From an uncultured Pseudomonadota bacterium (GTDB lineage: Bacteria; Pseudomonadota; Alphaproteobacteria; UBA9219), in assembly GCA_903869345.1 (NCBI GenBank), contig CAIPYM010000053.1, positions 98 through 64,097 of the forward strand: DNA of 64,000 nt, written 5' to 3'. The notes under the pieces were generated by a model. The model worked only from the letters and a program-made list of their open reading frames with translations, was not told the origin of the DNA and made no database searches. Shown here in pieces: positions 95 through 3,787 of this stretch. Numbering within the stretch: position 1 is the stretch's first letter; the number at the start of each line of letters is the position of its first letter. The translations under genes were made by a program, and so were the position numbers.

Positions 95-631
95 TTAAAG
101 ATTGAGAGCTGGGGCGAAAGGTGTTTTAACACCATTTCCAAGTCCGCCAGGTGTAGAGGGTTGAGGTATTGGCTGCAGCCATGTCTCATCCCCTGGTTCA
201 ACATGCTTCACCCCCGATCTCCTGTCGTCAGCAGACACTTCCCTGTAGCGATCAATGATTGCACGCTGATGCTCAAGGGGCAGCACATTATTGTCAATGC
301 TTGCCAAGAATTCCTTTGCCGCGCCAGGTATCTGTGTACGTGTAAAGGACCCTGCTACGATCAAGTGGGGGAAAATTGGAGTTTGGCCATCAGCTCCTTT
401 CACTCCAGGCTCTGTTGTCTGTGTGAGTGTCCAAGAACTTCCTTGTGCCTCGGTGATATTCCTGACACGTGCGTGCAAAAGATCCAGTTCTGTCTGTTCT
501 ACTGCGTTCGAAGCAAGCTTTAGGATCAACCCAATCTCCGCTCCGATTGTGCGCCCTGTGCCCTGATCTCTCACCTCATGGATTTCCACGGCAGTGAGTG
601 GAGTGCTTTCTAACCGTAAACTATAGTGCAT
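95..631 (-). CDS. Orphan hypothetical protein, AT-rich
   Basis: Open frame with GGAGG 5 nt upstream of ATG at 631 (ORF track extends to 643); visibly lower GC than flanks; no recognisable motif. Confidence 0.6.
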   Translation of the reverse strand: MHYSLRLESTPLTAVEIHEVRDQGTGRTIGAEIGLILKLASNAVEQTELDLLHARVRNITEAQGSSWTLTQTTEPGVKGADGQTPIFPHLIVAGSFTRTQIPGAAKEFLASIDNNVLPLEHQRAIIDRYREVSADDRRSGVKHVEPGDETWLQPIPQPSTPGGLGNGVKTPFAPALNL

Positions 632-811
632 TTTTTCCTCCATTAATCCTTAGATTTGGCCCCTCTCTGGTCACGAACACCATCTTACCCTACTCCCCTG
701 CAATTAAAGAGCGGTAAATGCGGCCGTTGGCGCAACAAAAACGGAGGATGGAGGACAGGGGGCGGCTGGGCTCCAGTCGGGTCGTTGTCGTTGCGATACA
801 GGAAAAGCCCT

Positions 812-953
812 TGGATTCCGGCTTCCGCCGGAATGACGGCGGAGGGGACGGGGCAAAAAGAGAAACGTCGTCCCGGCGAAGACCGGGACCTCGAGAGGCT
901 GGGCAGAGCGGTTCACGAATCCCTCGGAATTCCGGCTTTCGCCGGAATGACGG
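812..953. repeat. REP-like family A cluster (GGATTCCGGCTTTCGCCGGAATGACG and CGTCCCGGCGAAGGCCGGGACCTCGAGA units)
   Basis: Palindromic units at 812-839 and 866-953 recur at ~9480, ~10440, ~42830-43140 and ~46911; partial copy at 1-15. Confidence 0.85.
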
Positions 954-1099
954 TTTTCTCTTCTAAGCCCCAGCTTTCGCCGGGGGTTTTTGACTCCCCG
1001 TCCTGTCGCCCGCTAGAAGGTGTCTTCGGGTCGGCTCCTTCAAAGGGGTTGGCCTGGACGCGCGGTCGTCCCAAGTCCACACCGGAATCCGGAGGCCCC

Positions 1100-2551
1100 G
1101 TGATCGTTGACGATACCCTCGAAATGCTGGCGTTCAACCTCAAGTTGGTCGGCCAGAAAACGCGCAAAAACGTCTTGGTCAGCATCGGGACGCCTACGGA
1201 TAAGGAGCGGCTCTTGCCCTCCATCCGGCGTCTGGTGGACCTGGGCAACGTGGCGCTCTACGCGACGCACGGCACGAGCCAGTTTTTGACGACCAGCGGC
1301 GTCGCCAACCAAGAGCTTTTCAAAATCGCGGAAAAGAAGGAGCCCAACATCCGGTCCTTCCTCGCGGGCGACCGGTTTGATTGCGTCATCAACATTCTGG
1401 TGGGCGACCACACCGACGAAACCAGCGACAACCGCTTGATCCGCACCGCGTGCATCGAGCACGGCATTCCGCTCATCACGGACTTGGAGGTGGCCGCCGA
1501 GACCATCCGTTCGCTCGTGTCCGTGGCCGAGCGCAGCCGCGAGGTGTTCCGCTACAAAATCGCGGACCCCGAGCGCCCCTGGGATGCGCGGGCGCATTTT
1601 CTGCAGCATGTGGCCGACCTCGGCGGGTTTGCGTGCTACCACGCGCACTTTGATCGGGCCTACATGATGACGCGCGAGAACCTGAAACTCGCGCACATTG
1701 ATATGCAGAAAAAGTGGGACCTCGTGCGGTATTTCAAGGAGAACTTCACGCCCGAAGACTTGATCATGCGCATGTCCCGGTGCCTGGAGACAATGATCCG
1801 GCAAGGCGTCACGGCGTGCCGCACGCACGTGGACGCGGACAAGACCGTGGGGCTCATGTGCCTGGAGGCGGCGCTGGAGGTGAAAAAACTGTTCGCGGGC
1901 CGCATTCGGTTTCAGATCAGCTTGCAACCCGCGCAGGGGCTGCTCGACCCCGAATCGCGGGCGTTTTACGCCAAGGCCGCCGAGCGTGCGGACTTTCTGG
2001 GGGGCTTGCCCTCGCGCGATCGCCCAACGCCCGAGAAGCACCTGGACATTCTGATGGACCTTGCCAAGAACCTCGGCAAAGGGGTGGACGTCCACATTGA
2101 CCAGGAAAACAACCCCGACGAAAACGAGACGGAGCTGCTCGCCCTCAAGACGATCGAACACGGCCTGGAAGGACGCGTGCAGGGCATTCATGCGATCTCG
2201 CTGGCCAGCAAGCCGGAGCACGAACAAGACCGCATCTTCGCCCTGATGAAAGACGCGGGGCTGGCTGTCATCATCTGCCCCTCGGCGGCGCTCAGCATGA
2301 AGGCACTGCCCAAGTACGCACCCTTGCACAACTCCATCGCGCCCATGCCGCGCCTGCTGGAGGCCGGAATCCCGGTCTACCTCGGCGTGGACAACATCCA
2401 CGATGTCTACATGCCGCTCGTGGATGGCGACCTCTGGTACGAGTGCCGCACGATGATGGAAGCCTGCCGATTCTACGACACCGAGCGTGTTGCATCCCTC
2501 GCCTGCGACAAGCGCGGGTTTGAGGTGGGAACAGTAGGCGTTGTTGGCTGA
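1100..2551 (+). CDS. MGS-like domain fused to a cytosine deaminase-like amidohydrolase
   Basis: GGAGG at 1091 then GTG at 1100; N-terminal YATHGT...DCVINI...IRTACIEHGIPLIT (CarB/MGS-like); C-terminal HAHFD, RTHVD, HIDQ, IHAI, GVDN metal-site motifs. Confidence 0.85.
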   Translation: MIVDDTLEMLAFNLKLVGQKTRKNVLVSIGTPTDKERLLPSIRRLVDLGNVALYATHGTSQFLTTSGVANQELFKIAEKKEPNIRSFLAGDRFDCVINILVGDHTDETSDNRLIRTACIEHGIPLITDLEVAAETIRSLVSVAERSREVFRYKIADPERPWDARAHFLQHVADLGGFACYHAHFDRAYMMTRENLKLAHIDMQKKWDLVRYFKENFTPEDLIMRMSRCLETMIRQGVTACRTHVDADKTVGLMCLEAALEVKKLFAGRIRFQISLQPAQGLLDPESRAFYAKAAERADFLGGLPSRDRPTPEKHLDILMDLAKNLGKGVDVHIDQENNPDENETELLALKTIEHGLEGRVQGIHAISLASKPEHEQDRIFALMKDAGLAVIICPSAALSMKALPKYAPLHNSIAPMPRLLEAGIPVYLGVDNIHDVYMPLVDGDLWYECRTMMEACRFYDTERVASLACDKRGFEVGTVGVVG

Positions 2552-3639
2552 TAAGGAATCCATCCAGGAGGTTCAAGCCTTTTGACGGCGGGTTGCTGGG
2601 TTCCCTCGGGCGTTTGGTAAACGCCGAGCCCACCGAGGAGATTGTGAAGGTAAATGCCCTCGAGTGATTCAGGCAAAAACCTTTGGTCTTCTTCCAATGT
2701 TTGAGCATTATGGAGGACGTCTAATATAGGATTTCCTGACGATGGTGAGCCAGGTGTGTTCATGGCTCGCCGTATATTGCCCCAGGCTGCTTGGAGGGCA
2801 GAGGCGGGAGGTTGAGATGCGCTGTGTACATCTTGTGGCATAAAAGCAAGATTGGCGTATTCGTCATTGTTGGTAATGGCATACATAGCGCGTAGGGAGC
2901 GAAACGCGGGTTCAAAGCGTTCAGCGAGCCTCGAGTTGATGTGACGCACGGTATCGTACGCTATCGCGTCAGCTCTGTATTCATCACTGTATCGAATGTG
3001 GGCGACCTCATGTGCAAGGCTCCATAGTCGTCCATACAAAAGGGCATCATGCGAAAATGACATGGCAATCGTGTGCGGTGCAAAGGCGGCTAGCCCTGTA
3101 AGTGACTTTATGGACGGTACGACATCGTGTGGAGTGACGATGAGACGCAGTACGTTTGCGCCGGCTCCAAGCATAAATGTAGGTGATTGTTCGAAAGATT
3201 TATCTTTTTTGCACAGTTTTTGTGCCGATTCCTCCCATGATTTTTGTAATCCAGCGGGGGCTCTTTGTGGAAAGAGAGCCTTAAATCCGTTTGTGCATTG
3301 TTCTTTATTTCCTGAGCTGATTCCATGAGTGATGTTTGCGGTGTGTTCGTTTGGGGTCGTAATAATAATTGTCGATTTTTCATTTGGAATAACATATTTA
3401 ATAACACGTGCGATCTCATTTCGCCAATTAATGTTTGAACTCACATAAACTCTTGGTAGATTGAAGCCTAAGGGTACGGAGCCCATTTTTGTTGGAGGTG
3501 TAACGACTTGAGCTGAAGTGGGGCTCCCTCTGGGTGTCGTGTGTGGGGTCGGAGCCGCATTCACACCCATGGGTGTCGCTAACGCCATGGCAGCAGCTAG
3601 GAAAGCTCCATGCACAAGAGAAGAACGTTGCCAAGACAT
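2473..3639 (-). CDS. Secreted HEXXH metallopeptidase-like orphan, AT-rich
   Basis: Signal-peptide-like N-terminus ending VNA; AHEVAH followed by EYRAD; GAGG upstream of ATG at 3639. Confidence 0.65.
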   Translation of the reverse strand: MSWQRSSLVHGAFLAAAMALATPMGVNAAPTPHTTPRGSPTSAQVVTPPTKMGSVPLGFNLPRVYVSSNINWRNEIARVIKYVIPNEKSTIIITTPNEHTANITHGISSGNKEQCTNGFKALFPQRAPAGLQKSWEESAQKLCKKDKSFEQSPTFMLGAGANVLRLIVTPHDVVPSIKSLTGLAAFAPHTIAMSFSHDALLYGRLWSLAHEVAHIRYSDEYRADAIAYDTVRHINSRLAERFEPAFRSLRAMYAITNNDEYANLAFMPQDVHSASQPPASALQAAWGNIRRAMNTPGSPSSGNPILDVLHNAQTLEEDQRFLPESLEGIYLHNLLGGLGVYQTPEGTQQPAVKRLEPPGWIPYQPTTPTVPTSNPRLSQARDATRSVS

Positions 3640-3787
3640 CAAATCGCCTCACTGTTCCATTTTATGCGAAAAAACTGAAGAAAAAGTAACGTTTCCATGA
3701 AAAATACTTCAACACATCGGCCAGCTTGACCTTCAGCCCGCGAACGGACAAAACCGGGCGCATCTTTCCTTCTCTTGGAGCCTCCCC

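Follow-up and report, generated by a model that had tools for sequence, protein, structure and literature searches.

What is the role of an amidohydrolase that carries an MGS-like domain at its N-terminus and a glutamine where cytosine deaminase has its catalytic glutamate? The question is raised by a gene at 1100..2551 on the forward strand of a 64,000-nt stretch of DNA (hereafter the window) from an uncultured alphaproteobacterium of the UBA9219 lineage (assembly GCA_903869345.1, contig CAIPYM010000053.1, positions 98 to 64,097). The first-pass annotation of this gene, made from the letters alone, had proposed a nucleotide-regulated deaminase or hydrolase. That interpretation was partly supported: it was right in outline, and the main point about the gene, its complementarity with the pyrimidine genes pyrB and pyrC, is invisible from the sequence of the window alone.

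The barrel of the encoded protein belongs to the NCBIfam family NF005365/PRK06886 (404.8 bits against a cut-off of 340, with residues 163-469 on positions 9-315 of the 327-position model; 405.3 bits in a six-frame search of the genome). This family, named "hypothetical protein", is that of the HI0842-type proteins of Haemophilus influenzae (HI0842, UniProt P44058). The anatomy, family membership and invariant active-site pattern of the protein, its phyletic complementarity with PyrB and PyrC and the gene clustering of the family are direct observations. From them we conclude that the protein, a member of an uncharacterised family in a known superfamily, very probably works in place of aspartate transcarbamoylase (ATCase, PyrB) and dihydroorotase (DHOase, PyrC). 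A biosynthetic bypass is preferred over a regulated deaminase because the family occurs where PyrB and PyrC are missing, and because its genes cluster, or exchange domains, with those for ArgG, ArgH-like proteins and late pyrimidine enzymes.

Pyrimidine and arginine genes of the host genome

The window derives from a metagenome-assembled genome (MAG) of 1.74 Mb in 76 contigs (G000), with 99.31% completeness and 0.13% contamination, in which the gene of interest is the sole match to Pfam Amidohydro_1. The sequencing runs listed as containing this DNA are pond and peat metagenomes, with no RNA among them. No ATCase was found in this genome: the ATCase model TIGR00670 matches only ornithine transcarbamoylase (OTC), with 130 bits where the cut-off is 237, and this sole transcarbamoylase is a true OTC (393 bits against 306). 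Likewise, neither type of DHOase was found in G000 with TIGR00857 and TIGR00856, which were positive in 14/14 and 10/14 well-known control genomes. Searches of G000 for Upp and Udk were also negative, so that the genome appears to have no recognised salvage route to uridine monophosphate (UMP). CarA, CarB, ArgG and PurA are present, together with ArgH (511 bits), PyrD (277 bits) and PyrF (178 bits). A genome with PyrD and PyrF, and with neither PyrB, PyrC nor a recognised salvage route, needs another source of dihydroorotate, for which the PRK06886-family protein is apparently the only new candidate.

Phyletic distribution against PyrB and PyrC

The relationship between the family and the two canonical enzymes was assessed in three samples of genomes. 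The first comprised 71 genomes of the window's own order. NF005365 is above cut-off only in G000 and in G043, a 100% complete genome from a different family. ATCase is above cut-off in 64 of the 71 genomes, and the seven without a call are G000, G043, three genomes at 54-83% completeness and two whose gene is broken across contig ends; at 90% completeness or more, G000 and G043 are the only genomes without ATCase. DHOase of either type is present in 67/71 and absent from G000, G043, G062 and G040, so that only G000 and G043 have neither enzyme. A congener of G043 (G042) has ATCase and PyrC and does not have the PRK06886 gene.

The G043 gene is also of the fused form. Its neighbourhood is unlike that in G000, and in a quick tree it groups with Hyphomonas (98), the G000 protein grouping with Competibacteraceae and Candidatus Kentron (96); the latter protein is 57.8% identical to its G043 counterpart and 65.5% identical to that of Competibacteraceae. 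Given the different neighbourhoods and tree clades, the two copies are best regarded as independent acquisitions. In the same order, G059 encodes a divergent paralogue (L085:6104-7378, reverse strand) of 424 aa that has no MGS domain, scores 235 bits on NF005365, keeps an HVDQ motif and lies between purN and purM; this genome has normal PyrB and PyrC.

The second sample encompassed 401 genomes of the phylum at least 90% complete, with ATCase called at E <= 1e-50 and present in 373. All 16 carriers of the family are without ATCase, as against 12 of 385 non-carriers, several of which have genomes of about 1 Mb. Eleven of these carriers are named among the genomes without ATCase, and the remaining five (G350, G410, G430, G460 and G472) are deduced from their absence from the list of matches; these five, together with G400, G444 and G462, are exactly the eight unlisted genomes with no ATCase match. 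The complementarity extends to short evolutionary distances: in one family (f18), three of nine genomes carry the gene and exactly the other six have ATCase, a pattern that holds within a single genus (g67). Exact-sequence matches identify the f18 proteins as those of Hyphomonas and Henriciella, those of a second family (f46) as H. influenzae, Aggregatibacter and Rodentibacter proteins, and that of G150 as a Gilliamella protein. Five carriers in this sample, three of them closed genomes, have no real DHOase, showing only N-terminal motif matches of at most 34.5 bits, and PyrD is present in 16 of 17 carriers.

A third sample consisted of 33 carriers from many phyla, many of them MAGs, which were reached via the loci of the family. 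ATCase is above cut-off in five of these genomes (G014, G026, G029, G030 and G033). Strong matches to the DHOase model pyrC_multi occur in the same five and in G009 and G012, and no type-II DHOase was found in any of the 33. The possibility that planctomycete carriers keep PyrC without PyrB was rejected, the matches in G012 and on contig C45 of G009 being dihydropyrimidinases beside PreA; a second G009 match, on contig C11 (208 bits), is unclassified as to DHOase status. Both PyrB and PyrC are thus missing from 27 of the 33 carriers, or from 28 should the C11 match be something other than PyrC; PyrD is kept by 25 of the 27. Over the whole sample PyrD is present in 31/33 and ArgG in 22/33. Among the carriers that have neither PyrB nor PyrC are genomes of 5-7 Mb (G001, G002 and G011) and the complete 3.2-Mb chromosome of a cable bacterium (G010). 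Kin not being independent, no p-value is attached to the three samples. Across them, the pattern recurs in a minimum of these distinct lineages: the window's own and that of G043, Hyphomonadaceae, Pasteurellaceae and Gilliamella, Competibacteraceae, Thiotrichales, Desulfobulbaceae, Verrucomicrobia, Planctomycetes, Flavobacteriales and Patescibacteria. G084 and G427, flagged as unpublished, contribute to the tallies solely as holders of the canonical enzymes.

As a separate observation, the planctomycete dihydropyrimidinases lie in what is a reductive pyrimidine-catabolism cluster (L092 in G009:C45 and L093 in G012:C2), which combines dihydropyrimidinase and PreA with a GltD-like subunit (G012) or an aminotransferase (G009). 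This dihydropyrimidinase mimics DHOase in family scans.

These distributions bear on a simpler proposal, namely that the family is only a new, non-homologous dihydroorotase, with carbamoyl-aspartate provided by an OTC-like transcarbamoylase that accepts aspartate or by some other enzyme. The fold is that of the superfamily containing DHOase, the G000 protein is the sole amidohydrolase of a genome without PyrC, and most carriers outside the candidate phyla radiation (CPR) retain one transcarbamoylase, all of which would agree with such a role. The loss of ATCase and DHOase is, however, joint and in the same genomes, and the transcarbamoylase of G000 is a high-scoring OTC. Moreover, 11 of the 33 carriers have no transcarbamoylase at E <= 1e-10, nine of which keep PyrD, and the gene clustering and domain swaps of the family involve ArgG and ArgH-like genes, not transcarbamoylases. 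We consider a dihydroorotase-only function unlikely, and regard substitution by the PRK06886 family for both early pyrimidine steps, PyrB and PyrC, as the probable explanation of the pattern.

Gene structure, barrel and active site

The open reading frame (ORF) listing of the window gives an open frame at 656-2551 (+), within which a GTG start at 1100 yields a protein of 483 aa. A database entry is identical to this product in length and sequence (100% identity and coverage), and homologue alignments begin at about residue 1-6 of the 483-aa protein, fitting the GTG start. The features of the gene are as follows:

1100..2551, + strand: whole gene, encoding the 483-aa MGS-like domain plus PRK06886-family amidohydrolase, with GTG start and stop codon at 2549-2551 (Pfam, NCBIfam, identical database protein)
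1112..1159, + strand: N-terminal helix, residues about 5-20, aligning with the C-terminal helix of argininosuccinate synthase in ArgG-MGS fusions (MAFFT alignment; tblastn)
1160..1537, + strand: MGS-like domain of the CarB allosteric type, residues about 21-146 (Pfam PF02142, CarB models, AlphaFold2)
1538..1585, + strand: low-confidence interdomain linker, residues about 147-162 (AlphaFold2 pLDDT 55-73; residues 151-155 below 50)
1586..2506, + strand: (beta/alpha)8 amidohydrolase barrel, NF005365/PRK06886, residues 163-469 (NF005365 404.8 bits; Foldseek)
1640..1654, + strand: H181-A-H183-F-D185, metal ligands one and two and an invariant Asp (invariant in 41/41)
2093..2104, + strand: H332-I-D334-Q335, third metal ligand, followed by the Gln that is invariant where CodA has its catalytic Glu (HMMER alignment; codons)
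2189..2191, + strand: H364, counterpart of the CodA catalytic His, presumably His246 (invariant in the family alignment)
2390..2404, + strand: D431-N-I-H-D435, metal-binding/catalytic Asp and a second invariant Asp (D431 and D435 invariant; N432 near-invariant)

An AlphaFold2 model built from the 41-sequence family alignment (pLDDT 91.7, pTM 0.83) predicts an MGS alpha/beta domain at residues 23-146, preceded by a helix at residues 7-17 and joined by a flexible linker to a (beta/alpha)8 barrel. As the first-pass annotation had noted, the beta-sandwich usual in such enzymes is absent: the model runs directly from MGS domain through linker to barrel, the family model has just 327 positions, and Foldseek aligns about 300-310 columns of the protein to CodA chains of 410-423 residues. 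Pfam Amidohydro_1 matches residues 176-455 (37.8 bits against a cut-off of 25). The concern that the fusion might be an assembly chimera is answered by a protein search, in which the best 120 of 1405 matches are full-length proteins of 457-510 aa with 93-100% query coverage and 58-67% identity, all bearing PF02142 and coming from several phyla. Sources among the matches listed include Competibacteraceae, Candidatus Kentron, Magnetomoraceae, Acidobacteriia, Telmatocola, Zavarzinella and Magnetoovum. No fused form longer than 846 aa was found at E <= 1e-20, which is weak evidence.

We aligned 41 members of the family, fused and stand-alone, from many phyla. The positions invariant in 41/41 include H181, H183, D185, K205, W206, D298, G301, L303, P304, D334, Q335, H364, D431 and D435, H332 is present in at least 90% of the members, and N432 is near-invariant. 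The protein matches the resulting family signature throughout (HxHxD, KW, GGLPS, HxDQ, H and DNxxD). The previously described HAH, HID, H and D ligands are accordingly real and conserved: metal ligands H181, H183, H332 and D431, together with the counterpart of the catalytic His, H364, form a mononuclear pattern of the CodA type. Compared with the Haemophilus-type protein, the G000 protein is 39% identical over residues 175-468 and has the same signature motifs; the Haemophilus and Flavobacteriales proteins and most of those from Patescibacteria are about 320-340 aa long and without MGS, whereas the G000 protein has it at its N-terminus.

The glutamine at the CodA catalytic-Glu position, also pointed out at first pass, is borne out at each level of analysis. 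HMMER places "vhidqe" opposite "vhcdei" of the Klebsiella cytosine/5-methylcytosine deaminase 4r7w (and HIHD in AtzC), and at 2093-2104 the DNA spells cac att gac cag. HxDQ likewise occurs in the proteins of G043, Hyphomonas, Gilliamella, Flavobacteriales and CPR and in the Haemophilus-type protein. Since Gln335 is invariant in 41/41 aligned members, it is a defining feature of the family, neither a sequencing error nor a lesion. Nor can the adjacent Glu336 be a displaced catalytic Glu, because its position is not conserved, family members reading DQL, DQF, DQK, DQA, DQM or DQI.

Comparison with known enzymes places the barrel close to, and outside, the cytosine deaminases. By sequence, the nearest solved structures are 4r7w (E 3e-24), AtzC (E 3.4e-22) and E. 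coli CodA (E 2e-17); by structure, the top Foldseek matches are 4r7w, 1k6w and 4cqb/2qt3 (E 1e-18 to 2.5e-20, root-mean-square deviation 2.5-3.0 A, about 300-310 columns, 24-26% identity). With CodA (1K6W and 4R7W) the protein shares the (beta/alpha)8 barrel, the same four metal ligands, the His and the Asp, but it has no beta-sandwich, a Gln for the catalytic Glu, and QPLxG for FPQEG. In the latter loop, which binds substrate in CodA, "fpqeg" of 4r7w stands opposite "qpaqg" of the protein, so that with the family consensus QPLxG the Gln156 position is lost (we take Glu217, Gln156 and His246 to be the E. coli CodA numbers). The CodA models are all far under their cut-offs (NF005759, 106.9 against 403 bits; NF005748, 98.8 against 438; NF006685, 74.9 against 483). 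In the same NCBIfam scan no curated AtzC model matched; in the genome searches, the DHOase models TIGR00857 and TIGR00856 and the ATCase model TIGR00670 gave no match to the protein. AtzC (2QT3 and 4CQB; Foldseek E 1.5e-18, 25% identity) likewise has no Glu at the CodA position, reading HIHD, but it differs in having a beta-sandwich (about 400 aa in all), a xenobiotic s-triazine substrate and no tie to arginine or pyrimidine genes; the measured likeness to the protein is that of overall sequence and fold.

With Glu217 replaced by an invariant Gln, the Gln156 position lost and the CodA models far under cut-off, the barrel is evidently CodA-like yet cannot be a canonical cytosine deaminase. The PRK06886/HI0842 family would be an uncharacterised sister group of cytosine deaminase and AtzC among the mononuclear-metal amidohydrolases. 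The view that this architecture is uncharacterised agrees with the name of NF005365, and a search of the literature outside subscription journals and supplements returned nothing on the function of PRK06886, on an MGS-amidohydrolase or on an argininosuccinate-to-pyrimidine route. HI0842 has been labelled "N-isopropylammelide isopropyl amidohydrolase" on purely bioinformatic grounds (PMC3877243).

Two further explanations turn on this active site. One is a salvage or catabolic deaminase with a cytosine-, creatinine-, isoguanine- or pterin-like substrate, the loss of pyrB and pyrC co-occurring because the hosts live on salvaged pyrimidines. It draws on the identity of the nearest solved relatives, which are cytosine and 5-methylcytosine deaminases, on the reduced genomes of some carriers, and on the salvage dependence of H. 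influenzae reported in PMC11024254 and PMC13328217. Against it stand the invariant Gln for catalytic Glu, the lost Gln156 position and scores of 75-107 bits on CodA models with cut-offs of 403-483. G000, furthermore, has no Upp or Udk with which to use a deaminated base or nucleoside, PyrD is retained in 31/33 and 16/17 carriers, and these include genomes of 5-7 Mb and closed Hyphomonas genomes. We hold such a deaminase to be very unlikely; the earlier proposal of deamination of a nucleobase, nucleoside or pterin is unsupported, phyletic pattern and clustering pointing instead to a biosynthetic bypass.

The other is a non-catalytic pseudoenzyme or sensor, in which a ligand-binding barrel would be coupled to a regulatory MGS domain, as the loss of the CodA catalytic-Glu residue could suggest. 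This is extremely improbable in view of the four metal ligands, the counterparts of the catalytic His and Asp and about 16 further positions that are invariant across phyla, at an identity of about 60%; in addition, the stand-alone form has no regulatory or DNA-binding domain, and AtzC, an active enzyme, also lacks Glu at the same position.

The gene has a GC content of 61-63%, compared with 44-53% in the DNA of the flanking ORFs and about 62-67% farther out. Those ORFs, at 95-643 (-) and 2473-3642 (-), have no Pfam match, in keeping with the first-pass description of a gene between two AT-rich orphans. Because relatives do not have the gene, it may form, with its low-GC flanks, the remnant of an acquired island. 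Within the 450 nt upstream of the gene, repetitive extragenic palindrome (REP)-like sequences of the form ATTCCGGCTT[C/T]CGCCGGAATGACGG occur at 815-839 and 929-953, with a degenerate copy at 911-935; the same element, which translates as "GIPAFAGMTV", is also present beside pyrD (L090:4459-).

The MGS-like domain

The N-terminal region is recognised by the Pfam MGS model (PF02142, residues 38-127, E 3.6e-14, 53.1 bits against a gathering cut-off of 24.1), which confirms the MGS-like assignment made from the letters. The CarB large-subunit models NF003671 and TIGR01369 match residues 21-141 through their C-terminal allosteric end (positions 933-1048 of 1058), and the nearest solved structure for the N-terminus is the MGS domain of human CPS1 (2yvq, E 5e-5). 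AlphaFold2 predicts an alpha/beta fold with pLDDT >90 over most of the domain. Relative to the allosteric domain of CarB and CPS1 (2YVQ), as matched by the Pfam MGS and CarB models, the MGS of this protein is detached from carbamoyl phosphate synthetase and fused to an amidohydrolase.

MGS modules shuffle among ArgG, an AsnA-like ligase and the amidohydrolase. In tblastn comparisons, the modules on these three proteins are closer to each other (E 1e-16 to 8e-18) than to CarB (2e-8); residues 419-552 of the ArgG-MGS protein of one locus (L040), in which the ArgG model stops at residue 433, match residues of about 7-141 of the G000 protein at E 1.2e-16. In a MAFFT alignment, residues of about 5-20 of the G000 protein align with the C-terminal ArgG helix that precedes MGS in the ArgG fusions, and the N-terminus thus apparently keeps a vestige of that helix. 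Given the likeness of the MGS modules and this vestige, the fused gene looks like a rearranged ArgG-MGS/amidohydrolase operon, which would constitute a Rosetta-stone link to ArgG.

At the Asp-Lys, Ala-Thr-x-Gly-Thr, Lys and Asn positions of CarB, which we take to be the phosphate and ribose contacts of inosine monophosphate and UMP in E. coli CarB structures, identical residues are aligned in the MGS of the protein, and a nucleotide-binding regulatory module is plausible. MGS is missing from the Haemophilus and Flavobacteriales proteins and from many Patescibacteria proteins, and in others is found on ArgG or the AsnA-like ligase. As many family members do without it, the domain would be an accessory module dispensable for catalysis. 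Most likely it senses a nucleotide such as UMP and provides feedback at the branch point of arginine and pyrimidine synthesis, a role that would be the most economical reading of the domain.

Spread of the family and gene neighbourhoods

A scan of species-representative genomes located 70 loci of the family. The fused form occurs in Competibacteraceae, relatives of Thioploca and Beggiatoa, cable bacteria (Electronema), Planctomycetes, Verrucomicrobia and others, and the stand-alone barrel of about 320 aa chiefly in Patescibacteria and Flavobacteriales. We clustered all ORFs of the 70 loci to identify recurrent neighbours. A Lyase_1 gene immediately adjoins the barrel in 21 of 70 loci, and the five of these neighbours that were scanned with NCBIfam (L042, L057, L061, L062 and L067) all score 301-325 bits on the argH model (cut-off 279.5). 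ArgG with a C-terminal MGS domain adjoins the stand-alone barrel within pyrimidine operons at L040:6747-8426, L045:8983-10620 and L068:6804-8417; the L040 and L045 proteins score 458-518 bits on ArgG models.

In Patescibacteria, a truncated ligase with a class-II aminoacyl-tRNA synthetase core (tRNA-synt_2, AsnA-like) lies by the amidohydrolase/ArgH-like pair at L042:10356-11210 (+), L051:10359-11204 (+) and L068:9301-10719 (+), and in L068 it is fused to an MGS-like domain. A tRNA-synt_2 gene near the HI0842-type gene of L086 is presumably EpmA/GenX and was not used as evidence. Among the loci listed up to L067, PyrD, PyrK, PyrE and PyrF share operons with the stand-alone form, and shared operons with CarAB, PyrB and PyrC or OTC occur in at least two loci.

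The arginine genes in these neighbourhoods could also be taken to indicate a hydrolase of the arginine branch unrelated to pyrimidines, whether an analogue of arginine or citrulline deiminase or of a ureohydrolase, or a recycler of argininosuccinate in an aspartate-deaminating cycle with ArgG and ArgH. Adjacency to ArgH-like and ArgG-MGS genes fits this proposal, as does the relationship of the MGS domain to the CarB domain that senses ornithine and nucleotides. It leaves unexplained both the near-perfect complementarity with PyrB and PyrC and the presence of PyrD, PyrE and PyrF in the same operons, for which reason we find it highly improbable and retain substitution for PyrB and PyrC. A scheme in which ArgG-like and lyase proteins aminate a uracil nucleotide to a cytosine nucleotide was also dropped, the ArgG and ArgH proteins scoring as bona fide equivalogs.

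Some neighbouring genes are recorded here for their own sake. A gene for the 37-kDa nucleoid-associated protein NA37/NdpA is beside the amidohydrolase or two genes from it in L061:9070-10158 (a Flavobacteriales MAG) and L086:10416-11441 (Haemophilus-type), a proximity that may be chance or the trace of shared transfer. In the L040 operon, from a small gammaproteobacterial MAG, two genes lie between the amidohydrolase and pyrF, pyrE and upp: a divergent PyrD-like protein of 363 aa with an N-terminal extension of about 115 aa (L040:9828-10919), and an aspartate ammonia-lyase-like gene (L040:10916-12196) that at 487 bits is slightly below the cut-off of 510.

A possible route from argininosuccinate to dihydroorotate

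If the family takes the place of PyrB and PyrC, the likely substrate is suggested by the genes around it. Carriers keep the argininosuccinate-making enzymes OTC and ArgG, or have an ArgG-MGS or ArgH-like gene adjoining the amidohydrolase. Argininosuccinate is, we infer, alone among standard metabolites in holding the N-C-N carbon of dihydroorotate together with its aspartate skeleton, and for this reason one new enzyme could replace two. It also cyclises spontaneously to anhydrides, one of them six-membered. Our best overall explanation, to which we give an even chance, is that the amidohydrolase is the key enzyme of a bypass of the ATCase and DHOase steps via argininosuccinate. The argininosuccinate chemistry taken by itself stands at, or a shade below, the same level. 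The substrate, products and regulatory ligand named here are our proposals.

In the proposed route, argininosuccinate would come from the ordinary arginine enzymes (CarAB, then OTC, then ArgG) or, in some ultrasmall bacteria, from arginine and fumarate by an ArgH-like lyase working in reverse; in the Patescibacteria that have no ArgG or transcarbamoylase (G021 and G023-G025), the adjacent ArgH-like lyase could be the source. At the amidohydrolase, water would attack the amidine carbon of argininosuccinate and displace the delta-amino group of ornithine, giving ornithine plus N-carbamoyl-aspartate, or dihydroorotate if ring closure takes place before, during or after. In those Patescibacteria, the AsnA-like ligase could power ring closure with ATP. 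PyrD would then oxidise the dihydroorotate, and the ornithine would be recycled, serving as a catalytic carrier of the carbamoyl group.

Parallels for the central step could be seen in arginase acting on arginine, in AtzC displacing isopropylamine and in creatinine deaminase acting on a cyclic acyl-guanidine. AtzC hydrolytically displaces an alkylamine from an amidine-type carbon, the type of chemistry proposed here for the PRK06886 family, and CodA also deaminates creatinine, itself a cyclic acyl-guanidine. The replacement of the proton-shuttling Glu by Gln would, speculatively, suit a substrate that already carries a protonated amidine.

The proposed net function is, like that of PyrB plus PyrC, the delivery of dihydroorotate to PyrD, with a complementary phyletic pattern; unlike the PyrB route, it would start from argininosuccinate and not from carbamoyl phosphate and aspartate. 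With CAD the protein has in common an MGS-like domain directly ahead of an amidohydrolase barrel. To judge by TIGR00670, TIGR00857 and TIGR00856, it is not homologous to PyrB or PyrC at family level. The metal site of DHOase is a binuclear zinc centre bridged by a carboxylated lysine, and the ligand pattern of the protein is mononuclear and CodA-like.

Several observations weigh against this bypass. The whole case is one of comparative genomics, and many of the carriers are MAGs. Neither the hydrolysis of an acyclic guanidino group nor a cyclisation coupled to hydrolysis has, to our knowledge, a precedent in the amidohydrolase superfamily. Five of the 33 carriers of the third sample (G014, G026, G029, G030 and G033) encode canonical PyrB and PyrC as well, so that replacement is not a strict rule for the family, and ArgG is absent from 11 of the 33, which makes the assumption of a reversed ArgH reaction necessary. 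PyrD is absent from G015, G018 and the Gilliamella genome G150, and in most genomes with the fused form, that of the window included, the gene lies away from arginine and pyrimidine genes. PMC11024254 and PMC13328217 portray H. influenzae as auxotrophic for pyrimidines and reliant on salvage, and uracil is a component of its defined media. The species has a member of the family (HI0842), and the bypass would be insufficient there if the auxotrophy holds even with citrulline supplied.

A further point against it concerns G000, in which no PyrE was found; its only Pribosyltran matches are Apt, Prs, ComF and PurF. The phosphoribosyltransferase gene beside argH was rejected as PyrE because it is Apt, that on contig C71 because it is ComF, and the remaining matches because they are Prs and PurF. 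PyrE-like ORFs of relatives, used as queries, had no match in G000, and two ORFs beside pyrD (295 and 203 aa) were likewise discarded, being Arg/Pro-rich frames that overlie REP-like DNA and match no family and no PDB entry. Either the MAG has a gap at PyrE, or PyrE too has an unrecognised replacement.

Implications

Taken at its broadest, the proposal is of an unrecognised, widespread route of de novo pyrimidine synthesis, with ornithine as carbamoyl carrier, one enzyme for PyrB and PyrC, feedback through a mobile MGS module and, in some ultrasmall bacteria, feeding from arginine and fumarate by a reversed ArgH-like reaction together with an AsnA-like ligase that closes the ring at the cost of ATP. 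In this full form we put it somewhat short of an even chance. Its putative carriers are Pasteurellaceae (HI0842), Hyphomonas, Competibacteraceae, large sulfur bacteria, cable bacteria, Verrucomicrobia, Planctomycetes, Flavobacteriales and many Patescibacteria. Cultured organisms (H. influenzae, Aggregatibacter and Hyphomonas) and E. coli complementation would allow a direct test of the prediction.

PyrB and PyrC pass for near-universal enzymes, and a genome without them is routinely taken to be that of a pyrimidine auxotroph. Patescibacteria and uncultured cable and sulfur bacteria have been classed in this way, as has H. influenzae ever since genomes were first compared. If dihydroorotate is made from argininosuccinate, those auxotrophy calls and many genome-scale metabolic models would be wrong, and an explanation would be at hand for the long-noted genomes in which pyrD, pyrE and pyrF persist in the absence of pyrB and pyrC. 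Arginine and pyrimidine synthesis would have a third metabolic link, with its own regulation by a CarB-type module that moves between three enzymes. A core pathway would thereby gain a new route, present in a model pathogen, and an unstudied enzyme of that human pathogen would become a defined target for study.

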